Below are positions 22,991 through 57,900 of a DNA stretch of 64,000 bases, one piece after another. The stretch comes from Candidatus Woesebacteria bacterium RIFCSPLOWO2_01_FULL_39_23. Its GTDB lineage: Bacteria; Patescibacteriota; Microgenomatia; UBA8517. Under the pieces are notes generated by a model that saw only the letters and a program-made list of their open reading frames with translations, did not search any database and was not told where the DNA came from. How positions within the stretch are numbered: position 1 is the stretch's first letter; every line of letters starts with the position of its first letter. The position numbers were made by a program, and so were the translations under genes. Location of the stretch: contig MGHG01000009.1 in NCBI GenBank assembly GCA_001793095.1, positions 221,849 to 285,848 of the forward strand, read 5' to 3'.

Positions 22991-23785
22991 TTATTTTCTT
23001 TTAAATAAAAGTTTGACATTCTCTTTTAGTAAATAATACGGAGAATCAATAAAATATAGCACCCTGCCTTTTACAATTTCTTTCGTATGCGCTTTATAGA
23101 AATCTCTATACAAATCAATTAGTTTATGAAAATTTACATCTTTCATTTCTTTATAAATAATTTTTCCTTCCCAATAATATTCAAGTTCTGGCTCACCCTT
23201 CCATCCAACCGCTTGGAATTCCGACGTATAGAGAAGCGGAAAGTTTTTAGGAATTACTACCATAGTATTGTTATCGTTAAGAAAAAGCCATTTATGATGA
23301 GCATTACCAGGAACTCGTCTTGCACCAGACAACCAATCGGTGAAATTTATATGAGAAAATACTATATCGCAACCGAACGACGGCGTTGAAATGTAACCTC
23401 TTTTTGAAATCCTTGACATTTCTTCAAGAAGTATAAAAGGGTGGTTTAAATCTTCTAAAGTATGGGTGCACAAGCAAAAATCAAACTCTTTGTTTTTAAA
23501 AGGCAGATTGTCTCTCGTAACATCACACTTAACAAAGTTCTTTGCTGTCAATCTGGTGGGAGAATAGGGAGCTTCTTCAGGCTTTATTAAATCGACAAGT
23601 GTATCAATATTGATTTTTGTATGCTGCTTCATACTTCCCCCAATATCGACAACCACATCGCTTTTCTTAATCTTATATTTATTAATCAAATCGGTGTCAC
23701 TTAACATGCTGTTTATCGAATGGCCAATAGTATTTAATGACAATAAACCATACATAAACTGCAAGTATCGTGTTAACAATAGCAA
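22991..23785 (-). CDS. Class I SAM-dependent methyltransferase (putative)
   Basis: Motif I VVVDIGGS and post-motif II DFCLCTHTLEDLNHP...LEEMSRISKRGYIS. The true start may be an internal Met, since the 5' end overlaps the flippase gene by 89 nt. Confidence 0.5.
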   Translation of the reverse strand: MLLLTRYLQFMYGLLSLNTIGHSINSMLSDTDLINKYKIKKSDVVVDIGGSMKQHTKINIDTLVDLIKPEEAPYSPTRLTAKNFVKCDVTRDNLPFKNKEFDFCLCTHTLEDLNHPFILLEEMSRISKRGYISTPSFGCDIVFSHINFTDWLSGARRVPGNAHHKWLFLNDNNTMVVIPKNFPLLYTSEFQAVGWKGEPELEYYWEGKIIYKEMKDVNFHKLIDLYRDFYKAHTKEIVKGRVLYFIDSPYYLLKENVKLLFKRK

Positions 23786-24992
23786 AGGTTATAGCCGGAC
23801 CAAAGGATCCATATTTTGGAATAAAATACAGATTCATGAAAAAAGTTGCTATCAACTGAAATAACGCAAAAGATCCGACAAGTATCGGTTTTTTCATCGC
23901 ATATATTATTGCCGTAACTGCCGGAACAGTAAGTAAAAATGGAATCATTGCCGCTGCAAGAGCCTTAAAGATTGGTATCGATTCGATATATTTTTCACCG
24001 AAGAGAAGTATAATAAAGGATCTTGCTATTAAAACCCATAGGAGGATTCCTACCACCATCGGAATTAACGCCAAACAGGCTTTCTTAATATAGGTTTTTA
24101 CATTAGCCGGATCTCCAAAAGACGCAAAACGCGGAGCTAAAACCGATGAGTAACTCGACGCCAAAAGAACTATAAAGAAGGCCAATCTTGACGAAATGGA
24201 ATAAATACCCGTCGCCGTTGCGCCAAGGAGAGCTGCCAGCATGGTTATATCTAATCTTCCAGAAACAGCCGAAATAACACTACTAACACCAAGCCAGCCG
24301 GAAAATCTTATCAAAGACAAATAGATGAATTTTTGAGGTCTCGCTCTTGCAAATTTAACTCCGATAAAATAAAAACCGACGAGCGATGAAAATAATGCAC
24401 CAAGCGCATATGCTAATAGCGTGTGGCGTATACTCGCTAACCCTAAAGCAACAATCAAACCGACAAATAAAAGTCTTCCAATACCCACCGACACATCTAC
24501 AATTGACGACTTTAAAAACTCTCTTTTTGACCTAAGTACAAAAGGAATAAAAGTACAAGGAAGAAAAAGAAATATAATAATAACCGACCAATATGCAACT
24601 TCTCTATCGGAAGTGGCAATAAACTTATTTGTAATGAATTTAGAAAATATAATCAGAAAAAAAGAAATAACAACTACCGAAATTAACCTCAATAAGAAAG
24701 CAGCTTTTATATATTCATTTGCCCTTGTTGTGTTACCTTCACTAAAATTTTTTGAAGCAAAATTAATTACCCCAGATGAAATTCCCAAATCAGTAACCGA
24801 AATAATCATCAGCACTAGATTGTTTGCAGCAGAAAAAATACCGAAGTCCCCTACCGATAAAGCTCTGGCAACAAGTATCGTAAATAAAAAAGCTAAAAAC
24901 GCAGATGTGACATTACCGATAAAAAGCGTATAGGTGTCGCGTGCAGTTGCAGACAGAGCCAGGGTGCGCGCCCGATTGTAATATCTTTTCAC
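23697..24992 (-). CDS. Oligosaccharide flippase (Wzx / MOP-PST family)
   Basis: 431 aa with about 12 TM helices. The N-terminal region is typical of polysaccharide biosynthesis protein PF01943 (TLFIGNVTSAFLAFLFTILVARALSVGDFGIFSAANNLV). Confidence 0.65.
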   Translation of the reverse strand: MKRYYNRARTLALSATARDTYTLFIGNVTSAFLAFLFTILVARALSVGDFGIFSAANNLVLMIISVTDLGISSGVINFASKNFSEGNTTRANEYIKAAFLLRLISVVVISFFLIIFSKFITNKFIATSDREVAYWSVIIIFLFLPCTFIPFVLRSKREFLKSSIVDVSVGIGRLLFVGLIVALGLASIRHTLLAYALGALFSSLVGFYFIGVKFARARPQKFIYLSLIRFSGWLGVSSVISAVSGRLDITMLAALLGATATGIYSISSRLAFFIVLLASSYSSVLAPRFASFGDPANVKTYIKKACLALIPMVVGILLWVLIARSFIILLFGEKYIESIPIFKALAAAMIPFLLTVPAVTAIIYAMKKPILVGSFALFQLIATFFMNLYFIPKYGSFGPAITFAIVNTILAVYVWFIVIKYYWPFDKQHVK

Positions 24993-29201: not shown

Positions 29202-30029
29202 TTAATTCCCGGAAAATAAGGATTTATAATTCACCTTTTTAAATACTTTTAATTTCCCTCCGATTGTGGCATCTAAAATTTCTCTTCCCTTTTTTTCAAA
29301 AGCTTTTTTGGCTAATCTATAAGCATATTCTGATGTTTTTAAATCAGGTAAATGCCATTTATAACCTTGACCGAAATAATTGCTTTGAAAATGGTCTTTA
29401 TCCTTACCTTCGGTCACAATTTCACTGTGCGGTTTTCCTTTAGTTTTAAAACCATGATCAACGCCGATGAGATAGACCTTTTGAAAACCCAGATAAAAGG
29501 CAAGTTGCATAGCAACATATGTAACTGTGGCCCCTTCCCACACTCCTTGCGTTGGATCATGGGAAAATATCTCACGCACGAGTGTTCTAATATAAACGAT
29601 ATTTTTGTTGTTTCTAAAATACTTTCTTCCTTTCCAACTTATAAACTTCGTCGTATTAACATCCTGTAATTCCCTATTACTTTGATTTAGTACTAAATTA
29701 TTTATTGACACCAAAAAAGTTGTCGTAAATCCCAATTCATCAAACATTAAATAAACTCTATTCAAGCCGAAGGTGTATTCTTTTTTTAGAAGTTTCAAGT
29801 TGGTTTTCTTTAAACTTGGTCCGTTTCCTAATATAAAACATCGTTTATCGAGGTATTTGTCTTTGTATTTTCCCAACTTCTCCCTGCTCATAATCCCCCT
29901 TTTATCAAATCTCCATGCAGGGTAATTAATTGTGTCGTAAAAAAAAGAAATCACATCAAAAATAGGTTGTCCTCTATAGCGTTGAATATACCAACTTTTA
30001 AAGTTCTGAATTACTTCAGTTATTTTCAT
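29202..30029 (-). CDS. DUF115 / MptE-like protein (Maf/Cst-II-like, putative nonulosonic-acid or other sugar transferase)
   Basis: CFILGNGPSLKKTNLKLL...FGLNRV and a later YLIGVDHGF parallel the GNGPSL / YLSGIDFY motifs of GT42 Cst-II and DUF115 proteins. The start is set at the internal Met (MKITEV) to avoid an 89-nt overlap. Confidence 0.5.
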   Translation of the reverse strand: MKITEVIQNFKSWYIQRYRGQPIFDVISFFYDTINYPAWRFDKRGIMSREKLGKYKDKYLDKRCFILGNGPSLKKTNLKLLKKEYTFGLNRVYLMFDELGFTTTFLVSINNLVLNQSNRELQDVNTTKFISWKGRKYFRNNKNIVYIRTLVREIFSHDPTQGVWEGATVTYVAMQLAFYLGFQKVYLIGVDHGFKTKGKPHSEIVTEGKDKDHFQSNYFGQGYKWHLPDLKTSEYAYRLAKKAFEKKGREILDATIGGKLKVFKKVNYKSLFSGN

Positions 30030-30030
30030 A

Positions 30031-31443
30031 TTATTTATTATTACTAGAATTCTTTTTATCCGTTGCATCACCAAAAATAAACTTAATATTGTTATCGGAG
30101 AATACGCCCACCCCAACATATGCCAACACTAGTGGTGTCAATGGCATCATCGCTCTTTGGACCGATATATCTACTTGATTCCACGAAGTATTAACAAAAC
30201 TAAATAAGTATGTGCCCAACATAAAATAGACGGACATTCCTAAAATATAAAAAGGAAAGTAAACATGTTCCTTAGTATTTACGCTTTTCTTTAACAACTT
30301 AATTCCCCAAAATCCTAAAGTAATGAAAAATAATGCATAAATCCATTTATAAGCCCAAAATGACCTGGCAAGATAATATACTACTTCCCAAACCCGTATA
30401 AAAGAAAAGTTATTAATACCCCCCATAATTGAACTTGAAATATAATCCTGTTCCGAAGCATATATAAAACCTTTATTCATGAGTGTAATTATTTTCCACC
30501 AGAATTGACCGGATATCGTGACCGTAATTATACCTAACAACAACCTGAGTCTTTCTTTTTTTATTACGAGCATGCTTACTATTAATCCAAGAACATAAAA
30601 TATGTATAATGATTCAAGGTTTCTAACTTGGGTACTTATTATTATTAAAAACAAAGATAATATTAATAAACCCTTTCTTCTTTTGCTTAACCATTCATAG
30701 AAATAAAGAACTCCCAAAACAAAATAATAAACATACGGAACGTTTGAATATTCGATTATCGAAATCTTGAAAAAATAATATGAACTTGCCAATAAGAAAG
30801 TGAGTATACCGGAAACGGAAATATTAATTTTACTTCTTCTCAAAAACTTATAGAAGAGATAAATAAATCCAACATTTAGAACTACATAAACCCATTTTGG
30901 GTTATTTATACCGTCCAAATACGAAATCGCATGTAAATTTGATGTTAGAAGCGGATATGAAAAATAATACAAACCTCCGGATTTAAGCTGGGCTGGTTTA
31001 GAATAACTGGCCAGATCCGTAAGTGTATGTTCTTGGCTAAAATAACGCCCCCTAAAATCGTAAAGCGCAACGGCGTCCCACATATTTACCGGCCATACTA
31101 ATAGTGAGAATGTAATTACAAATTCAATAATAATCGTGACTAAGATAAACAGTGAAGATATTAAATATTTATTTAGGTTTAATTTAAGTAATAAGCATGG
31201 ATTTATGATATTCCGTTTCTTTGTTCTCGGTATCTTCAAAATTATAATAAGTGAGATAATCCAGCAAAATACAATAATAATTAATTTATTTATCGGGGAA
31301 AATACTAAATTTATAGTAATTATGAAATTTACGATTCCAAAACCTACTCCAAACCCCAATATTAACTTTTCTAAAATGTTATATTTTGGAACTAACACTG
31401 AAACCAACAAGCAACCGAAAATTAATATGGATATACTTAACAT
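30031..31443 (-). CDS. Polytopic membrane protein, putative GT-C glycosyltransferase (module A1)
   Basis: 470 aa. WPVNMWDAVALYDFRGRYF...YYFSYPLLTSNLHA loop after about 3 TM helices. It is clearly paralogous to 32537-33931. Confidence 0.45.
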   Translation of the reverse strand: MLSISILIFGCLLVSVLVPKYNILEKLILGFGVGFGIVNFIITINLVFSPINKLIIIVFCWIISLIIILKIPRTKKRNIINPCLLLKLNLNKYLISSLFILVTIIIEFVITFSLLVWPVNMWDAVALYDFRGRYFSQEHTLTDLASYSKPAQLKSGGLYYFSYPLLTSNLHAISYLDGINNPKWVYVVLNVGFIYLFYKFLRRSKINISVSGILTFLLASSYYFFKISIIEYSNVPYVYYFVLGVLYFYEWLSKRRKGLLILSLFLIIISTQVRNLESLYIFYVLGLIVSMLVIKKERLRLLLGIITVTISGQFWWKIITLMNKGFIYASEQDYISSSIMGGINNFSFIRVWEVVYYLARSFWAYKWIYALFFITLGFWGIKLLKKSVNTKEHVYFPFYILGMSVYFMLGTYLFSFVNTSWNQVDISVQRAMMPLTPLVLAYVGVGVFSDNNIKFIFGDATDKKNSSNNK

Positions 31444-31444
31444 T

Positions 31445-32524
31445 TTATTTTCTCAAAATAATCAACCCCTTTTTGCCGCTGTATAAATTTGAATCAGGTG
31501 TATATATATTTGTTTTAATAGATCCGGCATTAAATATCTTAATTGCACTGACATTTAAAGTTAGATCGGGGAATCCTCTTCTCGGTATAGATCCTTCAGG
31601 AGCTAATTCATTGGGGCCTATCAAAAGCGCGTGTGTAATAGTTTCAGAGGGATAATCTGACTTAATATCCTCATCGTTAACCAAAATTCTCGGATAAAGA
31701 AAATACCTCAATACGACCTGACTACCTTCCCACAAAAAGGGTCCAACTACTGCAGGGTGATAAATTACAGAATCTTCAGTAGTATTATTTTTAATAAATA
31801 ACATATAGCTATAAAACGCTCCCCATTTAAATCCCATTTTTTCGTCATAACTCTTTCCTACATATTTCCATGTATTAACAAATTCGGAAGTTAGCGGGCT
31901 TATTAAGTTTGAAATATTTTCGAAACTCAAAAAAAGTATACAAATAAATATCAACAAACTACGGAAGGATAATTTATGTAGGTAAATAAAAAATAAATTT
32001 ATGCTGTTTATTCCCTTATTTAATATTTTTAATACTCTAATACTTATAGCTTTAGGGAAAGTAAATTTGATTCTTAGTTTTTCGTAGTTAATGTGTGGTA
32101 ATTTTTTGATAACAGGCAATTTCACTCTCGAAATTGATATCAGATAAAATATCGAAGTCAGTACGATAAAAATCATATTTTGGTAGTAAACATGGTAAGT
32201 TGAAAAAACATAATTCGAATAATTACTACTTTCTATGTATCCGAAAATTAGATAAAAACTAAAAAATATTGGCGTAGTTACTGCTGCAATAATATTTGCC
32301 ACGTTATTATTATTGCTTTTGAAATAATTCGTATGTGCTGTATTAATAAAATGGGGAATTAAACTTAATACAGAGATTAAAAATATGGGTATATTTTCAT
32401 TTAATCTAAAAATCCCGGGATGAATAAACGTTTCTCCTAAGTAAAAAATATAACTTATTAATAATGTTAAAACATAAACTCTTTTGTAATATTTATTAAA
32501 ATAAACCGGAATTAAATTCAACAT
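31445..32524 (-). CDS. Membrane protein with C-terminal soluble domain, unknown function (module B1)
   Basis: 359 aa with about 5 TM helices and a C-terminal domain of about 150 aa containing VVLRYFLYPRIL. It is paralogous to 33939-35012 (RLVRYFLFPRNL). Confidence 0.4.
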   Translation of the reverse strand: MLNLIPVYFNKYYKRVYVLTLLISYIFYLGETFIHPGIFRLNENIPIFLISVLSLIPHFINTAHTNYFKSNNNNVANIIAAVTTPIFFSFYLIFGYIESSNYSNYVFSTYHVYYQNMIFIVLTSIFYLISISRVKLPVIKKLPHINYEKLRIKFTFPKAISIRVLKILNKGINSINLFFIYLHKLSFRSLLIFICILFLSFENISNLISPLTSEFVNTWKYVGKSYDEKMGFKWGAFYSYMLFIKNNTTEDSVIYHPAVVGPFLWEGSQVVLRYFLYPRILVNDEDIKSDYPSETITHALLIGPNELAPEGSIPRRGFPDLTLNVSAIKIFNAGSIKTNIYTPDSNLYSGKKGLIILRK

Positions 32525-32536
32525 TCTCTATTTATA

Positions 32537-33931
32537 TCAATGTTTGTTTTTAACAATCATTTTTTCTAGCGGGTTACCGATTGCGACAAGTAAATAAGAA
32601 AAAGGGTATATAAATAAACCCGTTCTTGATATCGAGTCAAAAATTTCTTTTCTTTCCTGAAATTCTATACTTACTATCAACGTTCCCAAAAAGAGAACCA
32701 CCATATCCATCATGAATATGGTGGCAGTAATTCTCAAAAAGTCCGATTTAATTACTTTGGACTTATATTGAAGTAGGGAGATTAATCCTACAGTCGACAA
32801 TAATGCAAATAATATTATATTATCCTGTAAAAATAACAAAATTATTTTTATTGCCTCTAACATATACTCGATCTTAAAATTAGCCAGAACTTTTGCAAAA
32901 ATATTAATATTCAAGCTATTTATAAAAAAGCTGTTTGCATATTTAAGCGCAGTGTTTTTCCACAAATATCTTACAAGTAGTGGAAAAAAGATATATGCAG
33001 GAAAATAAATATAACCTTGTTTATTTTTTATAATCCAAAATAACAAAAACAATATATTTACTAAATAGAACGGCTCCACAGATCTCGACCAAATACTACC
33101 ACCCAATAATATTCCGGAAATAAACATTGCTCCAAGCTGACTTCTATTGGATTTGTTAGCCAATATTTCTGAGAGAATAACAGTAGACAAAAAATAATAA
33201 AAAATATATATCAAGTTCGTATACGAAATGATAGCTTGCCGTAAAATATTCGGGGTGAAAATAAATAAATACGTATAAAATATTGCGTAATTACCGGATC
33301 TTTTTTTGATGGTCGAATAAAAGAATAACCCCAATAATATAAAGGTAAGAGGATAAAGAACTTGCGGCGATCTTCCACCCAGTAAATAAATTTGTGCGTG
33401 AAAGATAGAGGTTAACAATGGATAAGAAAAATAATATCCGGGATTATTAGGATCAAATCTATCAAGTTTTGCTAGATCATTAAATAAATATCCCTGTGAC
33501 AATAATCTACCCCTCAAATCGTATAATGCTAAAGCGTCCCAATCAGTTATAGGCCAATATACGGCTATAATTATTATAAATACAAATAATAATGTGGTTG
33601 AAATTAAAATTAATTTATATATTAACTTCTCACTTGAAAAATATTCTTTTAGTCGATATATAAATAATCTCTTATTTTCTATTTTATTTATAAAATTTTT
33701 GCCCCCAAATATTAAGGATAAAATTAAAAAAGCATATGTCGTTAATACAATAAAATTAAAACTCAATGGTCTGTCCAAACTTAATAAAATAAAACTAGTA
33801 AAAGTAATAAAGAATATACCTAATGCAAATCCAATTGATAATATTTCAATAAAACTGCGTTCTGGAATAATACTTAAGGTTAATATTAGTCCCGCGAATG
33901 AAATTAAAAAGATAAAAATTATCCAATTCAT
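32537..33931 (-). CDS. Polytopic membrane protein, putative GT-C glycosyltransferase (module A2)
   Basis: WPITDWDALALYDLRGRLL...YYFSYPLLTSIFHA. This is a paralog of 30031-31443. Confidence 0.45.
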   Translation of the reverse strand: MNWIIFIFLISFAGLILTLSIIPERSFIEILSIGFALGIFFITFTSFILLSLDRPLSFNFIVLTTYAFLILSLIFGGKNFINKIENKRLFIYRLKEYFSSEKLIYKLILISTTLLFVFIIIIAVYWPITDWDALALYDLRGRLLSQGYLFNDLAKLDRFDPNNPGYYFSYPLLTSIFHAQIYLLGGRSPQVLYPLTFILLGLFFYSTIKKRSGNYAIFYTYLFIFTPNILRQAIISYTNLIYIFYYFLSTVILSEILANKSNRSQLGAMFISGILLGGSIWSRSVEPFYLVNILFLLFWIIKNKQGYIYFPAYIFFPLLVRYLWKNTALKYANSFFINSLNINIFAKVLANFKIEYMLEAIKIILLFLQDNIILFALLSTVGLISLLQYKSKVIKSDFLRITATIFMMDMVVLFLGTLIVSIEFQERKEIFDSISRTGLFIYPFSYLLVAIGNPLEKMIVKNKH

Positions 33932-33938
33932 TTATTTA

Positions 33939-35012
33939 TTAATTTAATTTAATTAATCCGTAAGAACCCGCATTATATCCATCTGAAGGTATATATTCAT
34001 GTGTAATGTATTTCACACGCTTAGAATTTAAGTCGAAATAATAAACAGAATCCGCTTCTATTGAAAATTTCGGCCATCCATAATCGTCACTATTAGCGGG
34101 TGGGAATCCTTCATTACCCCACGCAATCATCACATAATCTACGACGTTACGCCATTCCGGATTTTCCTCATAATAAAGATTTCTGGGAAATAAAAAATAT
34201 CTCACTAATCTCTGATTACCTTCCAGCTGCCAAGGATTTTTCTGTGGTGGCATTAATATATTTGAATCAGGCGGAGTATGTACCTTGATCATCTCCATGT
34301 AATTATAAAAATTACCGTAAGATGCATAAAATTTATATTCAGTTTTTTGCGGATAACTCATTGACAAATTTTTCAGAATTGGCGCAGAGTTTTTTATCAT
34401 ATAGTCAAATAGATTTACACTATTGTCCGACGACACAAAAAGCAGCAATGAGATAAAAAATATTTCTGAAAAAAAAATAGCCAGAGAAGTAATATTGATC
34501 AGTTTTAAATCGCTAAATATTTTATAATAATTTTTATTAATTTTTAAGTGTAGTGTTGGTTTATGTATAGAAATAAATCTTAAACGTAAACCTTGACTTT
34601 TTATAACATTACATAGAACTAAAATGCCGCTAAATATCACTATTCTATTATAATTTTCAGGTTGAATATGCAAAGTCGAAAAAATATAGTTTGGATAATG
34701 GTTGGCTTCTATTATATTCATAAGTACCGAGATTAAGAGTAATACGGGAAAAAGAAGACTGTTAGCGTACAAAAAGATTGTTGGTAAAAGGGCGGTTCCT
34801 TTCTGTTTGGCATGACCATAAAATGTGTCTACAATACCGAAACCTGCGGCAATAATTATTAACAAGGTTGTATCAATATATAGATTTTTAAATAAAAAAC
34901 CTCTATAAGTAAAAGATTCAACAATTAAACTAAAAAAAGTGATTGTTGATAAAAAAGGGAAGATTTGATTAATATATCTTGTCAAATTCTCAAACTTAAT
35001 AGGTTTTAACAT
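33939..35012 (-). CDS. Membrane protein with C-terminal soluble domain, unknown function (module B2)
   Basis: Paralog of 31445-32524, with the same TM-then-soluble-domain layout and a shared RYFL(F/Y)PR motif. Confidence 0.4.
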   Translation of the reverse strand: MLKPIKFENLTRYINQIFPFLSTITFFSLIVESFTYRGFLFKNLYIDTTLLIIIAAGFGIVDTFYGHAKQKGTALLPTIFLYANSLLFPVLLLISVLMNIIEANHYPNYIFSTLHIQPENYNRIVIFSGILVLCNVIKSQGLRLRFISIHKPTLHLKINKNYYKIFSDLKLINITSLAIFFSEIFFISLLLFVSSDNSVNLFDYMIKNSAPILKNLSMSYPQKTEYKFYASYGNFYNYMEMIKVHTPPDSNILMPPQKNPWQLEGNQRLVRYFLFPRNLYYEENPEWRNVVDYVMIAWGNEGFPPANSDDYGWPKFSIEADSVYYFDLNSKRVKYITHEYIPSDGYNAGSYGLIKLN

Positions 35013-35018
35013 AATAAT

Positions 35019-35807
35019 TTACACCTTCTTAAGCCAAACGTAGAAGCTCGCGCAAAATAATCCAGGGGATAACGACACCATGTTTTCTCTTAATTTTTTT
35101 GGGATAAGAAAATTAATAGTTTGCCACAAAGTTTTTAGTATCGTTAATTTGGTTTTATTTTCTCCAGTCTGCTCTAAGTATTCAATCGCCAATTCGGGCT
35201 GACTATAATGATTCAGCGTACCAAAATCAAAATATTTTTTTTCAATTTTAAAACCACTAGTTTCTACAAACTTTTGAAAACCAGCCCATGTAAAAAATAT
35301 TTTATGCATGTAGTCCCAGTCGTTAAACACCTTGGTATGATCATGCAGTGTTGTTTTCCAGACAATACCCTTACCTAGTAATATCCTTATCCTCATTGGT
35401 AAATAAAAATGGTTTGGAACATTTATAACAGCGTATCCGGTTCTCTTCAGGCTTAGCTTAATGTGGTTCATTAGGATTTTGGGTTCGTATAAATGTTCCA
35501 AAATATCTTTAGCTACAATTATGTCGAAATATTTTTCCTTTAATTTGAAGGGTTTATTCAAATCCTGCTTTATTATTTTGATACCCAATTTCTTGCAAAC
35601 ATTAATAGACTCTTTGGAATAATCAGTTCCCCAAACTTCATTATTCCCAAGAAGAAACTTAACATCCCTTGCTGTTCCTATGCCAAAAATCAATATTTTC
35701 TTTCCTACAATACTTTTACCCTTTGTAATTTTGAAGTCTGGTAAATCTAAATCGTGGTAGACTTTGTGAGTATAAATATCATTATAAAACCTTTCTTGAT
35801 TGTTCAT
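35019..35807 (-). CDS. Class I SAM-dependent methyltransferase (putative)
   Basis: KKILIFGIGTARDVKFLLGNNEVWGTDYS (a motif I-like glycine-rich loop) and DIIVAKDILEHL. Confidence 0.55.
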   Translation of the reverse strand: MNNQERFYNDIYTHKVYHDLDLPDFKITKGKSIVGKKILIFGIGTARDVKFLLGNNEVWGTDYSKESINVCKKLGIKIIKQDLNKPFKLKEKYFDIIVAKDILEHLYEPKILMNHIKLSLKRTGYAVINVPNHFYLPMRIRILLGKGIVWKTTLHDHTKVFNDWDYMHKIFFTWAGFQKFVETSGFKIEKKYFDFGTLNHYSQPELAIEYLEQTGENKTKLTILKTLWQTINFLIPKKLRENMVSLSPGLFCASFYVWLKKV

Positions 35808-35812
35808 TATAT

Positions 35813-36574
35813 TTACTGTTTTTTTTTAAATAACACACAGACAGAGCCTCCCATTTGGTTAACCAAAGGTATCTTTGCCGCAACCCGTTCTAAAATAAAA
35901 TCGATTTTTCTCTTAAAGTCAAAGGGAAATACTTTAATGGGAATTATATATTCTGATGTACTAATATTTATTTTCACAAAATTTTTCAATATACTCTGGA
36001 TGGTCAACGGATTAATGGCCCATTCACCGGGTGAATCACCAATTATCCTCTTCAGAAGTGGCGTCGATTTAATAAGAAAAACTATTGGGTTGAGTAAATT
36101 GGGCTCATAAAAGAAAAGTAACCCACTCGGTTTCAATACCCGGTAAGCTTCTTTTCTAAATTTTTCCAAATCAAGGTGATGCAGAACATAAAATCCAAAC
36201 AAAACATCGATAGATTCTGTCTTCAGGCCAGTATCATACGCACTCTTTGCAATAAATTTAACATTTTTATGTTTAGCACATTTTCTTTTGGCGATTTCTA
36301 AAATTTGAGGCGAAATATCCAAACCATATATTGAACTCTCGGGAAAAGATTTCGCAATATGACGGGTATACTCTCCGGTTCCACAACCTATTTCTAGTAT
36401 CTTAATGCTCTTATTGTTGCTTCCAAAATTTCGGATAGCATCTATTATCTTTTTACTCTTTTTATTAATTTTATATTTTGTGAAGGGATCCATATATCCA
36501 TAGTTAACATCATAAGAATTAGCTAACATATCGAAGTGCTCCCTTTCAGTTTTTTCTCCTATTGTTATTTTCAT
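35813..36574 (-). CDS. Class I SAM-dependent methyltransferase
   Basis: KILEIGCGTGEYTRHIAKSFPESSIYGLDISPQ and VLFGFYVLHHL. Confidence 0.75.
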   Translation of the reverse strand: MKITIGEKTEREHFDMLANSYDVNYGYMDPFTKYKINKKSKKIIDAIRNFGSNNKSIKILEIGCGTGEYTRHIAKSFPESSIYGLDISPQILEIAKRKCAKHKNVKFIAKSAYDTGLKTESIDVLFGFYVLHHLDLEKFRKEAYRVLKPSGLLFFYEPNLLNPIVFLIKSTPLLKRIIGDSPGEWAINPLTIQSILKNFVKINISTSEYIIPIKVFPFDFKRKIDFILERVAAKIPLVNQMGGSVCVLFKKKQ

Positions 36575-40031: not shown

Positions 40032-40803
40032 TTTTAACTACCATTTTCCTTCCCCAATTATGAATAAAGTGAAGGGCAAGTACAAAAGGATTATTAGTGT
40101 GTAGTTTAACTATCTTCCAATCCTCACTCAGCGTTTTGTCAAACTCGTCCTTAGAAAAACTACGTTCAGGTATTCTAAAAGAAGAAAGGTATTTATTAAT
40201 TACTGCCGGCATCTTTGATCGTCCCACACGAAGCCACAATTCATACTCCATAATAAATCTTGTGTTACCTCTGAAAAGCCCATATTTTTCGAAAACCTTG
40301 GTACTCATAAAAACGGAGGGTTGCATAAGGTAGTTAACCATTAAAAGCAATGGGTAATAATTGATCATTAATAATAAATTTTTATAAGTAGTAATATGTC
40401 TTGTTATTTCCCTTCCTCCACCATCAATAACCCTGCCTCTTCCTGCCAGCCATATTGTGTTGGGATTGGTCCTGAAATACTCACCCACAATACGCAAAGA
40501 TCCTTTTTCATACACGTCATCGGCATTAATAAAAGCAAGTAGTTCTCCTTTGGCCTTACTAAGACCTTTGTTAATTGCGTCTAGCTGCCCATCGTCTTTC
40601 TCTTTATACAATTTAATAACATTATGGTATTTTTTTTCATATGTACGAATTATTTCCAGACTGCCATCAGTTGAACCGGGGTCCTGGATAATAACCTCAA
40701 GATTAGGATAATTTTGCCGTATAATTGATTCGAGCGTTTCACCTATATACTTGACTTTATTATATGAAGGAATAACTATGGAGATCTTCGGAAGTAATTT
40801 CAT
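40024..40803 (-). CDS. Glycosyltransferase family 2
   Basis: ISIVIPSYNKVKYIGETLESIIRQNYPNLEVIIQDPGSTDGS. Confidence 0.8.
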   Translation of the reverse strand: MKLLPKISIVIPSYNKVKYIGETLESIIRQNYPNLEVIIQDPGSTDGSLEIIRTYEKKYHNVIKLYKEKDDGQLDAINKGLSKAKGELLAFINADDVYEKGSLRIVGEYFRTNPNTIWLAGRGRVIDGGGREITRHITTYKNLLLMINYYPLLLMVNYLMQPSVFMSTKVFEKYGLFRGNTRFIMEYELWLRVGRSKMPAVINKYLSSFRIPERSFSKDEFDKTLSEDWKIVKLHTNNPFVLALHFIHNWGRKMVVKNV

Positions 40804-41147
40804 TTTGTTTTCTTGGATTTATCAGCATTTTTTATTGCATCACGTCGGATAAATTCCTCAAATTTATTTTCATACTTTCGGGTCTTCACATATATCCTCG
40901 CTACCATAAATATCACCAAAATAAACCCGCCCACCACCATCAAATCAAACAACCTAGTAATAAAAAATGTTCTTGCAAATGTCCTTAATATTTGAGGAAA
41001 AATAATAATTAACGCCGTTAATATCCATATTGTAAACCAGGAATAAAACTCAAGAGCATCAATATCGCGTCTTTTAAAATGCAGCAGTGCAAAATAAATC
41101 ATTGAAAAAGCGAAAAGTAAGGCAATTATTTGCAGACCAAATATCAT
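40800..41147 (-). CDS. Small membrane protein, DUF2304-like (partner of polyprenyl-phosphate sugar synthase; GtrA-like role plausible)
   Basis: 115 aa with 3-4 TM helices and a basic C-terminus. It is translationally coupled (ATGA overlap) to the DPM1-like GT2 upstream. Confidence 0.5.
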   Translation of the reverse strand: MIFGLQIIALLFAFSMIYFALLHFKRRDIDALEFYSWFTIWILTALIIIFPQILRTFARTFFITRLFDLMVVGGFILVIFMVARIYVKTRKYENKFEEFIRRDAIKNADKSKKTK

Positions 41148-41800
41148 AAACTAAACCTCCATTTAATTACATCAAAAAAAATAGAAAAGGCATCCAATAT
41201 AGTTACGCCTTTTACCCCATCCAAGTATATCGTCTGAACAGTAACACTGCAATGTTTCAGGTTGCGTTTGGCACATCGCACGACCATTTCTGTCTCGACA
41301 GCGTAACCTGTTGAACTCCATATAATTTCCTTGAAAGCGGCTTGTGTTATCGCCCGAAATCCGCAAAGAAGATCGCTAACCTTTATACCAAAAAGTAAAT
41401 AAACTAATACTATGCCAATTCGATTTCCCATTCCTCTTATAACCGGAACATCACGAGCAATTCTTCTGACACCGAACACTACCTCGCATTTTCCTTTTTC
41501 AAGTTTTTCTATAAATTTACTTATATCATCTGGGTTGTGTTGACCGTCGGAATCAATAAAAATAACCGCTTCGGCACCGTTTGCAAAAGCATAACTCGCA
41601 CCGGATTTCATAGCAGCGCCTTTACCAAGGTTAACTTTATGCTTAATAACCGTTGCATATGGCTTCGCAATTGCATTCGTATTATCGGTCGAACCATCAT
41701 CAACTACCACAATATCATATCCTGTTTTCTTAACTCCTTCCAACACTTTTTTGATATGCTTGCTTTCGTTATAAGTAGGTATAACTATAAATATTTTCAT
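41144..41800 (-). CDS. Polyprenyl-phosphate sugar synthase (DPM1 / GtrB / ArnC-like GT2)
   Basis: MKIFIVIPTYNESKHI...DIVVVDDGSTDNT...IFIDSDGQHNPDDI...VVFGVRR, typical of dolichyl/undecaprenyl-phosphate mannose or glucose synthases. Confidence 0.85.
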   Translation of the reverse strand: MKIFIVIPTYNESKHIKKVLEGVKKTGYDIVVVDDGSTDNTNAIAKPYATVIKHKVNLGKGAAMKSGASYAFANGAEAVIFIDSDGQHNPDDISKFIEKLEKGKCEVVFGVRRIARDVPVIRGMGNRIGIVLVYLLFGIKVSDLLCGFRAITQAAFKEIIWSSTGYAVETEMVVRCAKRNLKHCSVTVQTIYLDGVKGVTILDAFSIFFDVIKWRFSL

Positions 41801-44978: not shown

Positions 44979-45659
44979 ATGCCTGCTAAAAATGTGGTAA
45001 AAACCTATATCAATAATGGCATCTATCATATTTACAACCGTGGTGTAGAAAAAAGAAAAATATTCCAAGATAAACAGGATTATAATATTTTTCTGAACTA
45101 TATTAAGGAATATTTAAGTCCGCCGCCTGATATAAGTCAGTTAAAAACTCAATTCATTTTGCAAGGTGAGACCTTTAAAGGTCTACGAAGGTTACCACGT
45201 AATTATTATAAAAAAATTACTCTGATAGCTTACTGTTTACTTCCAAACCACTTTCATCTATTAATAAACCAAAACTCCACAGATGACATGCAAGAATTTA
45301 TTAGATCACTTTGTACTAGATACTCAATATATTTCAATAAAAAATACGACAGAGTGGGCGGACTGTTTCAGGGTCCATATAAAGCTGTTATTGTTACTGA
45401 GGATAATTATTTGCTCCATCTAAGTCGATACATACACCTTAATCCAAAGGATTACACAAAAGATATTATTAACACTTATTCTTCTTATGCCGAATATATG
45501 GGCCTAAGGAGGACGGAATGGGTAAAACCAGATATTGTGCTGGGTTTTTTCAACAACCCAGCTACACAAGAACTTATCAAAACTAATAATTATCGAGATT
45601 TTGTGGAAAAATACATTAAAGATTCTGAAGCGATTCTAGGTAATATGACACTTGAATGA
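44979..45659 (+). CDS. tnpA: Y1 (HUH) transposase, IS200/IS605 TnpA / RAYT-like
   Basis: YHIYNRGVEKRKIF...YCLLPNHFHLLIN (HuH motif) ...GGLFQGPYKAVIV...LHLSRYIHLNP (catalytic Tyr region). It is the only plus-strand gene in a minus-strand block. Confidence 0.75.
   Translation: MPAKNVVKTYINNGIYHIYNRGVEKRKIFQDKQDYNIFLNYIKEYLSPPPDISQLKTQFILQGETFKGLRRLPRNYYKKITLIAYCLLPNHFHLLINQNSTDDMQEFIRSLCTRYSIYFNKKYDRVGGLFQGPYKAVIVTEDNYLLHLSRYIHLNPKDYTKDIINTYSSYAEYMGLRRTEWVKPDIVLGFFNNPATQELIKTNNYRDFVEKYIKDSEAILGNMTLE
45159..45182. repeat. Loop-flipped internal copy of the IS-flanking hairpin inside tnpA
   Basis: TTGCAAGGTGAGACCTTTAAAGGT is identical to the flanking 24-mer except that the central CTC is GAG and there is a T>C change at position 4. 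It encodes LQGETFKG. Confidence 0.5.
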
Positions 45660-49323: not shown

Positions 49324-50991
49324 TCAATTCGCTACTGCTTGAAAATATTTATATCCGTTTGTTCCATAAATTTCTTGAACAATGTTAGCTTCATTAGGTA
49401 TCTCTTCGTCTGTTCCGATTATAAGGCTTTTTGGGTAAGTAAGCCTATCTCTATCCCAATTTATGGATAAAAAGTGGTATTTGTCAAAACTTCTGACGGT
49501 CGAGAATTCATATGCGTCGCGGGGAGTTAAGTTGTGTTCTTTTTGAAATCTTGCCGGTGGGTATTTAAAATAGAAAAGAAACAAAATATAGGGCTGGTCA
49601 TACCTGTCAGTAACGACGATATTGTCATATCTATCCTGATTCTCTTTGACAAAAGTAACGAGTTCCTTTATACCGTACTGCGATGAATAAGGATACTCTT
49701 TAGACATATGATACCAGTACATATTTAAGTACCTTGAAAAACTCCAAATTCCCAAAAGTCCAAATACCAAAAAACCAGTAACCCCTAACCATTTCAGCTT
49801 TACGGTTGATAATCTATTTAAAGAGTATGCGAATCCAAAAGCAGTTATTATAGTCAGTGGAATGACCATATTTTGACTGCGCAACGCATGAGGAGATTGA
49901 AAAGTGAGAGCCGCAGCAGTCGGAGCAATTAATAACCACCATAGAATTAGGTAGTAGGGCTTAGTATGTAGGGAGTAGGTCCTGAAAAAATAAATTAATC
50001 CCAAGATAATAAATAGAATGTCAAATAAATACATTTGCCCTGTTTCGGGTACGGCGTTTCTTTGAATTACATCTCCCGATATAAATAGAAATCCACCACT
50101 ATAGTGATCACTCCAATTCTCTAAAAATGCTAAGCCGTAATTAACCGGTCTATTGTGTAAGAATAATGCTGGAAGTCCTCTAATATTCTCGTGTTCGCCG
50201 CGTTGTTCGTTTATTCTGGCCAGCGGGCCGGGATCTGACAAAAGCCCCACACCGGCAGCCCGGGAGGCTACGTCCCCTTTTATTAAATCCAACCCGAGGG
50301 GGATGAGAAGCAAGAATGCAATAGTACCTGTTATTGCGATCTGTTTAATATTTTTACGTATTTCATATCTGTAAATAACAAGTAGTCCAAAAAGTAAAAG
50401 CGGAACGACAACCCGAGCTGCATGATATGTGTATAAAGAAAGCACAAAACTAAGTGCTGATAACATTAAGAGTGGCAAGCTGCCCTTGCCTTTCAAAAAT
50501 AACCACAAACCCAAAACCATAAAAAAGGTTGCGACATTTACTTCCCAACCTCCCCGGGAAAAATGAATATGCCACGGCGAGATTGCGAGTATCAGCGATG
50601 CAATCGAAGCCAGTACATCAGCATTCATCTGTTTATGGATCTGCGTAAATCCTTCCCTAAATAACTCCTTAACTAATAAATACATTAGTAAAACGGTTAA
50701 TACACCCAACATAGCACCCGGAATCCTTACAGCCCATTCGTTCAAACCCAGTACTTTGACGAATGGAACAACCATATAAAAATAAAGTCCTGGTTTATAA
50801 TCATTGAAGGATTGAAAGTGTATCGGCCAAGGATTACCGTGTTCGTCACGACCGGTTTGAATTAACGAATATGCATTATAACCTATTGCCGCCTCATCGG
50901 CATTTAGTGCAGGATAAGAATTTAATTTATAGAATCTCAAAACAAAAGCCAAAATAATAATCAGAATTAAGACTAGTTTATTTTTATTCAT
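49324..50991 (-). CDS. ArnT/PMT_2-like GT-C membrane glycosyltransferase (paralog 1)
   Basis: LNADEAAIGYNAYSLIQTGRDEHGNPWP follows TM1, then about 12 TM helices and a C-terminal soluble domain. Confidence 0.65.
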   Translation of the reverse strand: MNKNKLVLILIIILAFVLRFYKLNSYPALNADEAAIGYNAYSLIQTGRDEHGNPWPIHFQSFNDYKPGLYFYMVVPFVKVLGLNEWAVRIPGAMLGVLTVLLMYLLVKELFREGFTQIHKQMNADVLASIASLILAISPWHIHFSRGGWEVNVATFFMVLGLWLFLKGKGSLPLLMLSALSFVLSLYTYHAARVVVPLLLFGLLVIYRYEIRKNIKQIAITGTIAFLLLIPLGLDLIKGDVASRAAGVGLLSDPGPLARINEQRGEHENIRGLPALFLHNRPVNYGLAFLENWSDHYSGGFLFISGDVIQRNAVPETGQMYLFDILFIILGLIYFFRTYSLHTKPYYLILWWLLIAPTAAALTFQSPHALRSQNMVIPLTIITAFGFAYSLNRLSTVKLKWLGVTGFLVFGLLGIWSFSRYLNMYWYHMSKEYPYSSQYGIKELVTFVKENQDRYDNIVVTDRYDQPYILFLFYFKYPPARFQKEHNLTPRDAYEFSTVRSFDKYHFLSINWDRDRLTYPKSLIIGTDEEIPNEANIVQEIYGTNGYKYFQAVAN

Positions 50992-52691
50992 CTTTTTTCT
51001 AAAATCCTAAACGCAACCTTGCCGTTTAAATATCTTATTTCTCTTATTTCACTAAAATCGAATTTAGTGAAGTCAGCATGGATTCTATCCGCATTTCCTA
51101 CAACTATATAGGATTTTGTGGCTCCAATATGGGGAAAACTATAATCCTCAAAACGAATATTATCCAATCTTTCGACTTGGCCCACATCACCCCTATACAC
51201 ACTCTCTTTTAACTTGGCCTTGCTTTGATAGAGTATTGGGTCATATTTTCCATAGAATAGAAAGTAGATATAAGGTTGTGCAAATGTTTGCTGGACAATA
51301 ACCTCGTTATATTCATCCTTAATAGGAGATACCACCTCGACAATCTGTTTATATCCATACTCCCAAAGTTTTGAATCGTGATTTGGAAGATGTACAAAAT
51401 AAGAATCAAAAAAATAAATCAAACTTCCGACATAAAGTGCAGTTAGAAGTATGTAGCTGGTAGCTCGGATAAATGCATGGGTTTTAATATTCTGCAACCA
51501 TAAAATTATTCCATTTAGACCAAAGGAAAGAATTATTATAAGTGGGATTACCATATTCATCGATCGTATCGCATGTACTTCATTGCGCGAAAGAACAGAT
51601 GGCAAAGGCGCGAATATAAGCCACAACGATACAAATAATATTTCTTTCATTAGTTTTCTTTTACATAGTACAATTAAACCCGCTAATAAAAATATTGCAT
51701 CCGTCATTAATAACATACCCTGATGTGGCGAGGAATGCCGCGGATTTGACCAATCACCTTCAAAAAATAAAAACCTGCTCGACATATGGTTGAACCACCT
51801 CCCCATTATTCCTCGAAAATAATTTAATGATTCGGTATGAAATAAATAATAACGTAAAGAACCGACTTTATCGTTATCCTCACTCAAGAATTTTTGTAAT
51901 TGATCGCCCGGCCTTGGATAAGAAAAAACGCTAAAAACAGTTAGCCTCCCCGCTTCTCCATTAACATAACTTTTGATAACGGGTACTAAACATAGACTAA
52001 CAATTAGCGTGCTTATAATCACAGGCTTAGAGGCGGGTTTAAAAACACCCCAAAAACTTTTCCAATATATAATCATCAGCAATGTCACAACTATTAAAGT
52101 AGAGAGCTTGGTACCCTGATATGTAATAAAAGTTAACGCAAAAAAGAGTACCGAGTAAATTAGAAATTTTGGCTTTCGAAAAGATTTGAGAAAAAAAAAT
52201 ATCCCAGCTAAGGTTAAAGTAAGGGCAACGTTTGCTTCCCAGGCTCCTCTAGAAAAATATATTAACCACGGTGTAATAGAAGAAATAAATGCGGATAATA
52301 TTGCAAGTCGACGATTGCCGAACAATTCTTTTGTAATTAGATAAATTAAGTAAACCGTTATTATCCCTGCCGTTGCGCTCGGGAGTCTAACGGAATATTC
52401 GTTTAACCCCAAAAGAGCGATGAAGGGAGCAGCTAAATAAATATAAAAACCAGGTTTGTAGTCCCCGAAAGATTTAAAAATAATCGGCAATACTTTCCCG
52501 TATTCGTCCCGACCGGTATTCAAAATTGAATATGCGTTATATCCGAGAGCGGCTTCGTCGGGGGTCAAGCTCGGAGGTATGCTCCCCAACTTCCATAGTC
52601 TTAATAAAACTGATAACAGAATAATAAAAAACAATAACATAGTACTGGTTTTGAGTTTTAAGTTATGAGTTCTAAGTTTATTTATTTTCAT
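50988..52691 (-). CDS. ArnT/PMT_2-like GT-C membrane glycosyltransferase (paralog 2)
   Basis: LTPDEAALGYNAYSILNTGRDEYGKVLP. The start is placed at the internal MKINKLRT. Confidence 0.65.
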   Translation of the reverse strand: MKINKLRTHNLKLKTSTMLLFFIILLSVLLRLWKLGSIPPSLTPDEAALGYNAYSILNTGRDEYGKVLPIIFKSFGDYKPGFYIYLAAPFIALLGLNEYSVRLPSATAGIITVYLIYLITKELFGNRRLAILSAFISSITPWLIYFSRGAWEANVALTLTLAGIFFFLKSFRKPKFLIYSVLFFALTFITYQGTKLSTLIVVTLLMIIYWKSFWGVFKPASKPVIISTLIVSLCLVPVIKSYVNGEAGRLTVFSVFSYPRPGDQLQKFLSEDNDKVGSLRYYLFHTESLNYFRGIMGRWFNHMSSRFLFFEGDWSNPRHSSPHQGMLLMTDAIFLLAGLIVLCKRKLMKEILFVSLWLIFAPLPSVLSRNEVHAIRSMNMVIPLIIILSFGLNGIILWLQNIKTHAFIRATSYILLTALYVGSLIYFFDSYFVHLPNHDSKLWEYGYKQIVEVVSPIKDEYNEVIVQQTFAQPYIYFLFYGKYDPILYQSKAKLKESVYRGDVGQVERLDNIRFEDYSFPHIGATKSYIVVGNADRIHADFTKFDFSEIREIRYLNGKVAFRILEKR

Positions 52692-57828: not shown

Positions 57829-57900
57829 GTGAATCGGCTTTTTTAGTCTAAGCACTATATTCAATTGTAACACCCCCTTAATGCTTGTTAAAATATAACG

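Follow-up and report, generated by a model that had tools for sequence, protein, structure and literature searches.

Adjacent gene pairs for a divergent GT-C-fold glycosyltransferase and its probable membrane partner in a Candidatus Woesebacteria genome

The window, a 64,000-nt stretch of contig MGHG01000009.1 from Candidatus Woesebacteria bacterium RIFCSPLOWO2_01_FULL_39_23, contains four consecutive genes for membrane proteins of two types, designated A and B (Table 1). All four open reading frames lie where the initial annotation had placed them, and the order B2-A2-B1-A1 given there is that of transcription, with intergenic distances of 7, 12 and 1 nt. The proposed paralogy is borne out by composition-adjusted BLASTP, which aligns A1 with A2 at 29% identity over 288 aa (E=3e-23) and B1 with B2 at 26% identity over 284 aa (E=1e-21). 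The motifs WPxxxWDAxALYDxRGR and YYFSYPLLTS are found in A and RYFL(F/Y)PR in B, and the multi-TM N-terminus and C-terminal domain of roughly 150 aa ascribed to B correspond to five transmembrane (TM) helices and a domain of ~145 aa. It is virtually inconceivable that these similarities are compositional and that no real module exists. The proteins are AT-rich-encoded, hydrophobic and rich in Ile, Leu and Phe, but the E-values obtained after composition adjustment rule out an artefact of TM segments or low complexity, conserved non-hydrophobic motifs exist, and HMMs for A and B retrieve these two families and nothing else among the ORFs of 30+ loci. One positional claim needs correction: the module does not directly adjoin the GDP-fucose genes, as two methyltransferase genes intervene. 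The order MT-MT-B-A also occurs in three related loci (L001, L034, L037), identifying the methyltransferases as syntenic partners of the B2-A2 cassette lineage.

Table 1. Genes, motifs and domains of the B-A locus and its surroundings (window coordinates)
Feature	Position	Strand	Length	Description or basis
A1	30031..31443	(-)	470 aa	ORF; divergent paralog of A2
B1	31445..32524	(-)	359 aa	ORF; divergent paralog of B2
A2	32537..33931	(-)	464 aa	All-helical GT-C-fold glycosyltransferase without soluble domain
A2 first outer-loop motif PITDWDALALYDLR	33512..33553	(-)		Translation; conservation in 31 family members
B2	33939..35012	(-)	357 aa	ORF; predicted N-in, 5 TM helices, extracytoplasmic C-terminal alpha/beta domain
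B2 C-terminal domain, residues 214-357	33942..34373	(-)		Translation; model
B2 loop motif YPNYIFSTLHIQ, between TM3 and TM4	34662..34697	(-)		Translation; conservation in 155 sequences
Two class-I SAM methyltransferase genes	35019..36574	(-)		Pfam; immediately upstream of B2
DUF2304 small membrane protein gene	40800-41147	(-)		Pfam
GT2 gene	41144-41800	(-)		Pfam

The suggestion that A and B work together is supported. Of the 32 B genes of related loci that have enough downstream sequence, 31 are immediately followed by an A gene, every complete A in these loci has an upstream B, and 30 of 34 B-A junctions fall between -4 and +10 nt. The trees of the two families are concordant (Mantel r=0.86 for 12 pairs; r=0.73, p<=0.0002 for 31 pairs) and have clades X, Y and Z in common. 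Moreover, A and B are joined in a single chain in P0117 (759 aa), P0166 (781 aa) and an ORF of L013 (643 aa). Such natural fusions are topologically compatible because the K-rich C-terminus of A and the N-terminus of B are both cytoplasmic. They link the A protein of one cassette to the B protein of the next, rather than to its cognate upstream B. They demonstrate that domains of the two types are mutually compatible and near each other, but are no Rosetta-stone evidence in the strict sense for cognate partners.

The view that the pair duplicated as a unit holds in so far as the locus consists of paralogous A-B units; the idea of a local duplication does not. A blastn comparison of the two cassettes detected no DNA similarity (best match 44 nt at 75%), which argues against a recent tandem duplication, as does their placement in different old lineages. 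A1 and B1 each represent a lone deep branch of their tree. The duplication is ancient, and the locus is more aptly seen as a pair of autonomous cassettes that lie next to each other. Both belong to widely distributed lineages; in other genomes, cassette lineages occur singly (X alone in L001, Y alone in L005) or in various combinations (X+Y, Z+Y, X with a lone lineage). Two-cassette arrays recur in nine loci, and in three of the seven contiguous ones (L013, L036, L037) the middle genes are fused, such that the A protein of the first cassette is linked to the B protein of the second, which implies that the two cassettes are neighbours in the membrane. These fusions speak for a single hetero-oligomeric machine, B2-A2-B1-A1, comparable to the heterodimers Pmt1-Pmt2 or EmbA-EmbB, in which B1/A1 might be partly non-catalytic. 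Precedent exists for dimers of a catalytic and a non-catalytic GT-C protein (bioRxiv 10.64898/2026.07.15.738315), and in B1 several residues with a conservation of 92% or more have been replaced, its departures from the family consensus being Y36H, P256A, W261F, N266S, G299P and W313F. However, the single occurrence and varied combination of the lineages disfavours an obligate four-protein complex, and A1 appears catalytically competent from its sequence, because it retains all invariant family residues, including the W-D motif, and also D138 and R140 (A2 numbering). We therefore regard the one-machine model as improbable.

GT-C enzymes make cell-surface glycans across all domains of life, and the catalytic Asp or Glu of ArnT, PglB and PMT resides in the first extracytoplasmic loop, beside the membrane. 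The assignment of A to this class is well founded, since A spans the membrane many times and its fold can be superposed on those of solved GT-C structures. While the pairwise alignment of A1 and A2 spans only the N-terminal two thirds, conservation in the family alignment reaches the C-terminus. Among 31 family members, W131, D132, Y137, P171, Y237, R283, W324 and R436 (A2 numbering) are 100% invariant, and D138 and R140 are conserved to 97%. The PITDWDALALYDLR motif of A2, which lies in the model between helix 103-125, directly after it, and two short loop helices, holds W131-D132, Y137, D138 and R140. It thus places conserved acidic residues (W131-D132, D138) at candidate positions in the first extracytoplasmic loop near the membrane, with D132 as the candidate catalytic Asp.

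At the family level, A stands apart from the ArnT/PMT_2-type GT-Cs (PF13231; ArnT 5f15, AglB 3waj, Pmt1-Pmt2 6p2r). Neither A1 nor A2 reaches any Pfam threshold; they do not match PMT_2 even at E<=1 (gathering threshold 26.1 bits). Eleven of 23 A relatives match this family at E<=0.01 (best 6.5e-7), and an hhalign comparison of A with the neighbouring 485-aa PMT_2 family yielded an E-value of 2.6e-4 at a probability of 42%. A therefore constitutes a divergent sister family of PF13231, outside the family as currently defined. A PDB sequence search with the A profile returned nothing meaningful, a search of NCBIfam gave no matches, and a literature search on GT-C enzymes in CPR/Patescibacteria retrieved nothing. 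In its model, A has three extra N-terminal TM helices ahead of the core. Whereas ArnT, AglB, PglB and the PMTs carry a periplasmic or lumenal domain in cis, A1 and A2 do not, and the C-terminal tail of A comprises 21-39 aa, compared with 92-147 aa in eight of the 11 other GT-C genes of the window.

B belongs to no recognisable family, as initially stated: it has no match in Pfam (B1, B2 and 25 relatives), NCBIfam or the PDB, by sequence or by fold. PDB sequence searches with profiles of B and of its C-terminal domain gave nothing meaningful, and all that emerged was a weak DHFR-like signal (profile E 0.024, Foldseek E 0.5). The database entry 100% identical to B2 is a hypothetical protein of Ca. 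Woesebacteria RIFCSPLOWO2_01_FULL_39_23. The family comprises at least 839 clusters at 50% identity and, while unannotated in any database, is abundant in the CPR bacteria, a group with little-characterised envelopes and episymbiotic surfaces. Based on the positive-inside rule and the helices of an AF2 model of B2 (pLDDT 75), B is predicted to have an N-in, C-out topology with five TM helices, followed by a hydrophilic tail of 148-155 aa. The YPNYIFSTLHIQ loop of B2 would then lie on the outer face; it bears the motif NYPNYxFSxxH, in which N108, Y109 and H115 are conserved at 83-97% (155 sequences). The C-terminal domain shows alpha/beta secondary structure (block-mean pLDDT mostly 62-94) and contains the motifs SYxxKM, PPQKNPWQxEGNxxLVRYFLYPR, YGWPK and YGLIK. 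In the same 155 sequences, this ectodomain, and not the TM module, is the most conserved part of B.

The membrane part of B invites a different reading, in which B is not a structural subunit but a flippase, scramblase or delivery protein that makes the polyprenyl-phosphate-sugar donor available to its cognate A in the outer leaflet. Such a protein would resemble GtrA, ArnE/F or Wzx of the three-component glycosylation systems. The genes of flippases typically adjoin those of their GT-C enzymes (bioRxiv 10.1101/180810). The TM region of B indeed includes a compact module of four helices, with conserved Glu, Asn, Tyr and His residues at the membrane surface. Seven representatives of the family (P0050, P0058, P0063, P0066, P0072, P0076, P0165) contain an internal duplication of this 4-TM module, as is often the case in small transporters, and it also exists alone with other C-termini. 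However, the conservation maximum in the ectodomain fits poorly with transport, and reduced B variants that retain only the last TM helix and the C-terminal domain (the L013 fusion and an L033 protein with added TPR repeats) are still paired with A. GtrA and other small lipid-sugar flippases have ~4 TM helices and no ectodomain, whereas B bears one of 145 aa and shows no likeness to the GtrA, SMR or Wzx families in Pfam. The locus, in addition, already includes a Wzx-like gene (23697-24992). Together, these points make a flippase function of B quite unlikely.

B could also be an independent extracytoplasmic enzyme or binding protein, active for instance in glycan modification or trimming on the substrate of A, one step earlier or later, and linked to A by the pathway only, although we consider this unlikely. 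Conserved polar and aromatic residues of the ectodomain (W261, N266, R271, R277, W313) and the membrane surface (E32, N108, H115) may form a catalytic or binding site, consecutive pathway steps also predict gene adjacency and co-divergence, and in L030 one B gene has no A within 6 kb. Yet, apart from the faint DHFR-like signal, B matches no known enzyme in fold or sequence, and the near-universal tight junctions and repeated fusion to A suggest stoichiometric co-assembly.

The explanation that best accounts for the data as a whole, to which we assign a probability of about 0.6, is that each B-A pair represents an autonomous two-subunit extracytoplasmic glycosyltransferase cassette. A would be its catalytic subunit, an ArnT/PMT_2-like GT-C that acts at the outer face of the membrane, with the invariant Asp of its first outer loop (W-D motif) as the catalytic residue. 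Judging from the locus context, its sugar donor may be polyprenyl-phosphate-linked and is probably made in the same locus, which harbours, beside further GT2 genes, a GT2+DUF2304 pair that is conserved in L002, L005, L007, L008 and L030. By analogy with GacI/GacJ, this pair could act as a polyprenyl-phosphate-sugar synthase and, hence, as a potential source of lipid-linked donor, a role for which GacI/GacJ/GacL set the precedent (bioRxiv 10.1101/180810). B, in turn, is most likely a dedicated, co-translated subunit that supplies in trans the ectodomain missing from A. It combines five TM helices with an ectodomain in which Trp, Arg and Asn are frequent among the conserved residues, has a cluster of conserved polar residues on the outer side of the membrane, and would dock on A as the counterpart of the cap or acceptor-binding domain built into other GT-Cs. 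Each of the two diverged cassettes, finally, may introduce its own residue or linkage into a surface glycan that is methylated and probably contains fucose.

The proposed functional replacement is deduced from the size and position of the B ectodomain, because this region has neither a fold match in the PDB nor sequence likeness to the cis C-terminal domains of the neighbouring PMT/PMT_2 GT-Cs; homology to the latter found no support with hhalign and BLASTP (E>=0.09). A C-domain alignment search for cis fusions with Pfam domains recovered nine short unannotated proteins only. Many GT-Cs are active without any ectodomain, which counts against a contribution in trans. On the other hand, there is precedent in bacteria for GT-Cs whose active site is capped by a protein partner, a common requirement of these enzymes (bioRxiv 10.64898/2026.07.15.738315).

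[quoted passage not shown] As in this enzyme, a GT-C without ectodomain (A) is accompanied by a separate membrane-anchored protein with an ectodomain (B), although the B-A arrangement is known from genes and models. PIG-X/Pbn1 is a single-pass, eukaryotic protein, whereas B has five TM helices and is bacterial (CPR), and the two show no sign of homology, as the profile and model of B match nothing in the PDB, which we assume to include 9wno. Similarly, a proteome-wide AlphaFold3 analysis has assigned dedicated partners to mycobacterial GT-Cs (Pmt-ML0810c, MptB-ML2271/ML0614, AftA-LpqZ and others), some of which cap the active site with a periplasmic domain for substrate selection (bioRxiv 10.64898/2026.07.15.738315). 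These partners belong to different families and another phylum, and they were recognized through predicted interfaces, whereas B-A pairs are seen as adjacent, co-diverging and sometimes fused genes. Recent work suggests that most GT-Cs need protein partners, and the B-A pair offers a genetically clean example. The locus also resembles the three-component extracytoplasmic glycosylation systems GtrA/GtrB/GtrC and GacI/GacJ/GacK/GacL (bioRxiv 10.1101/180810; PMC11127046) in having a candidate GT2 lipid-sugar synthase with its DUF2304 activator, a Wzx-like flippase and GT-C transferases. However, those systems lack a B-like component, and B is not a homolog of GtrA, Wzx or DUF2304.

Our analysis leaves the B family ready for definition, along with a divergent GT-C subfamily (A). 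A more far-reaching view, which we put forward tentatively and at fairly low odds, is that the B proteins make up a large, as yet unannotated family of GT-C co-subunits, largely confined to CPR/Patescibacteria, that operate in physically chained modules of an extracytoplasmic glycan assembly line, with B binding the acceptor that the preceding step has produced. The recurrent fusion of the transferase of cassette n to the B protein of cassette n+1 would then reflect substrate hand-over between successive GT-Cs, and such a modular, processive GT-C system would have no described counterpart. The natural fusions P0117 and P0166 represent suitable constructs for probing the control of GT-C specificity by an ectodomain acting in trans.

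The four open reading frames of the initial annotation are all present, forming two cassettes in which a membrane partner protein (B) precedes a GT-C-fold membrane glycosyltransferase (A), with intergenic gaps of 7 nt (B2-A2), 12 nt (A2-B1) and 1 nt (B1-A1). Composition-adjusted BLASTP aligns A1 with A2 over 288 aa at 29% identity (E=3e-23) and B1 with B2 over 284 aa at 26% identity (E=1e-21). The proposed paralogy of both pairs is thus genuine, and the anticipated objection, an artefact of hydrophobic composition, is ruled out.

Coordinates of features in the window and in related loci from other genomes and metagenomes (L numbers)
Feature	Location	Strand	Remark
A1	30031-31443	minus	
B1	31445-32524	minus	
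A2	32537-33931	minus	
B2	33939-35012	minus	
B2 residues 214-357	33942-34373		weak dihydrofolate-reductase-like signal, below significance
PMT/PMT_2 matches	62263, 58728 (+), 52678, 50988, 49324, 41813, 38574, 25040, 20780		
PTPS_related matches	56065, 54401		
Five adjoining GT-C-type genes	49324-57873		555-602 aa each
GT2 and DUF2304 genes	40800-41800		GacI/GacJ-type pair
MptE-like/DUF115 gene	29202-30119		directly downstream of A1
IS200-like Y1 transposase gene	44979-45659	+	among few plus-strand genes
Transposase ortholog	L004 2004-2702		complete Woesebacteria genome CP055308
B variant, 542 aa	L033 3309-4937		
4-TM module of B, unrelated C-termini	L005 8229-9260; L006 1530-2555; L009 5375-6424		NYxNYxFSxxH
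Membrane family, 523-545 aa	L008 9745-11316; L026 8247-9824; L015 2863-4410; L037 1429-3024; L007 5875-7512		

Scans of A1 and A2 against Pfam and NCBIfam returned no match to either, and 11 of 23 A relatives matched PMT_2 (PF13231) at E<=0.01. W131, D132, Y137, P171, Y237, R283, W324 and R436 (A2 numbering) show no variation among 31 A-family members, while D138 and R140 reach 97% conservation; A1 retains all of these residues. In the structural model, the W-D motif lies immediately past a transmembrane (TM) helix, in a loop bearing two short helices. GT-C enzymes likewise have their catalytic acid in a loop just past a TM helix. The original view of A as a GT-C transferase is upheld, and the family is a divergent new subfamily of this known superfamily. 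Only 21-39 residues follow its last hydrophobic segment, so that A lacks a soluble ectodomain.

B, described initially as having no recognizable family, is indeed unannotated, yet its family is large: an exhaustive profile search retrieved at least 839 clusters at 50% identity, of which 569 have E<=1e-10; lengths are mostly 280-370 aa. A hypothetical protein of Candidatus Woesebacteria bacterium RIFCSPLOWO2_01_FULL_39_23 matches B2 at 100% identity, which places the window in a CPR/Patescibacteria genome. In the AF2 model (pLDDT 75), five TM helices are accompanied by a long stalk helix and, at the C-terminus, an alpha/beta domain of ~145 aa. Judging from the positive-inside rule, the N-terminus is probably cytoplasmic, which would place the TM3-TM4 loop and the C-terminal domain outside. 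Residues conserved among 155 sequences (B2 numbering) fall on the predicted outer membrane surface (E32, Y36, G38, E102, N108, Y109, H115) and in the ectodomain (K223, P255, P256, W261, G265, N266, R271, F273, P276, R277, G299, W313, P314, G352); B1 deviates from the consensus at six conserved positions. Two independent methods gave weak dihydrofolate-reductase-like signals for the ectodomain, with E=0.024 in a profile search of PDB and E 0.5-1 in Foldseek, neither of them significant.

When HMMs for both families were applied to the ORFs in 30+ loci drawn from collections of genomes and metagenomes, a same-strand A gene directly followed B in 31 of the 32 cases with room downstream (the sole exception being L030), and every complete A in the surveyed loci had B upstream. 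Of 34 B-A junctions, 30 lie between -4 and +10 nt, and the distance matrices of A and the adjacent B are strongly correlated (12 pairs, Mantel r=0.86; larger set of 31 pairs, r=0.73, p<=0.0002). This adjacency and the concordant distances bear out the suggestion that A and B work as a pair. The best-supported reading is that A is the catalytic GT-C and B its dedicated subunit, and we infer that the two form a physical complex. A would use a polyprenyl-phosphate-sugar donor on the outer side of the membrane, and B, presumably co-produced stoichiometrically, may complete or cap the active site through its ectodomain and outer-face polar cluster and choose the acceptor. It is unlikely that B is an independent enzyme, fold support for such a role not having been found. 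The closest analogies to the A-B pair are PIG-M/Gpi14 with PIG-X/Pbn1 (PMC9306709, PMC12653191) and the periplasmic partners predicted for most mycobacterial GT-Cs (bioRxiv 10.64898/2026.07.15.738315); the obligate, at times fused B-A cassette varies this known theme of a GT-C plus accessory subunit.

The A and B trees share three cassette clades: X (window B2/A2, L001 and the first cassettes of L015 and L034), Y (L005 and the second cassettes of L007, L015, L034 and L037) and Z (the first cassettes of L007, L036 and L037). Clade X cassettes were seen downstream of two methyltransferase genes in the window, L001 and L034. Window B1/A1 forms a single deep branch in both trees. Solitary cassettes occur for X and Y; in combination, X is seen with Y, Z with Y and X with a lone lineage, which argues that cassettes are autonomous units of old lineages rather than products of local duplication. 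A nucleotide comparison of the two window cassettes found no DNA similarity. The idea that the pair duplicated as a unit stands as to the paired cassettes but not as to a local event; the initial reading finds support once it is refined to an ancient, modular duplication. The combinatorial distribution of lineages also weakens the possibility that both cassettes build one hetero-oligomer.

Two representative proteins, P0117 (759 aa) and P0166 (781 aa), join a full A domain to a full B domain in a single chain, and a 643-aa ORF in L013 joins A to only the last TM helix and C-terminal domain of B. Such fusions occur in the context B - A::B - A and thus arose by joining of the two inner genes of such a double-cassette array. 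They show that A and B domains are compatible in a single polypeptide, connected by a short cytoplasmic linker, and that neighbouring cassettes can be together in the membrane; because the joined partners are non-cognate, they are weaker than a classical Rosetta stone for a cognate complex. In the 542-aa B variant of L033, three unrelated TM helices precede the B C-terminal domain, a large extra domain and C-terminal TPR repeats, and a divergent A (P0043) lies directly downstream. The N-terminal 4-TM module of B behaves as an independent unit, being tandemly duplicated in seven clusters (P0050, P0058, P0063, P0066, P0072, P0076, P0165) and elsewhere attached to unrelated C-termini. These variants indicate that the invariant core accompanying A is the last TM helix plus ectodomain. 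A role of B as donor flippase is weakened, since some A-paired variants lack the TM module. A polytopic membrane protein family recurs beside or between cassettes in other loci; none is present in the window, and the L037 copy has no Pfam match on record.

An envelope-glycan locus of very large size makes up the window. Besides A1/A2 it carries at least 11 GT-C-type genes (at least 13 in the 64 kb altogether), along with several GT2 and GT4 genes, a Wzx-like flippase gene, seven methyltransferase genes, one MptE-like gene and the genes for a GDP-mannose dehydratase and a GDP-fucose-synthase-like epimerase. The density of GT-C-type genes across 20780-63975 is unusual. A hydrophilic C-terminal tail of 92-147 aa is present in cis in 8 of the 11 other GT-Cs; A has none, and the tail of B (148-155 aa) matches these in size, although sequence similarity between the B domain and the cis tails was not found. 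Several Woesebacteria share a conserved frame (GT-C / GT2 / DUF2304 / GT2 / GT-C ... GT-C / Wzx) enclosing a variable low-GC stretch (0.27-0.31) with methyltransferases and B-A cassettes; in the window, GC reaches its minimum of 0.27-0.31 at the cassettes (30000-36000), compared with ~0.35-0.38 elsewhere. Serotype-variable glycan regions are likewise variable parts of otherwise syntenic loci. The GT2-DUF2304 pair, also kept in L002, L005, L007, L008 and L030, is a putative polyprenyl-phosphate-sugar synthase with its activator; in streptococci, GacI/GacJ make the lipid-linked sugar for the GT-C GacL (bioRxiv 10.1101/180810).

Because the longest MptE-like ORF shares 89 nt with the 3' end of A1, its real start is probably further downstream. 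The IS200-like transposase has an ortholog (59% identical) at the same relative position in L004; this conserved placement points to a copy that has become fixed or domesticated. A MAG labelled 'uncultured Gammaproteobacteria' (L002, CAZRGC010000001.1) contains a locus that is syntenic with the window, its proteins being 40-60% identical, and a B-A pair of ~30-32% identity lies on a 4-kb contig of a MAG labelled 'Pacearchaeota archaeon' (L003, JAWAEI010000062.1); both labels probably reflect misclassification or mis-binning.
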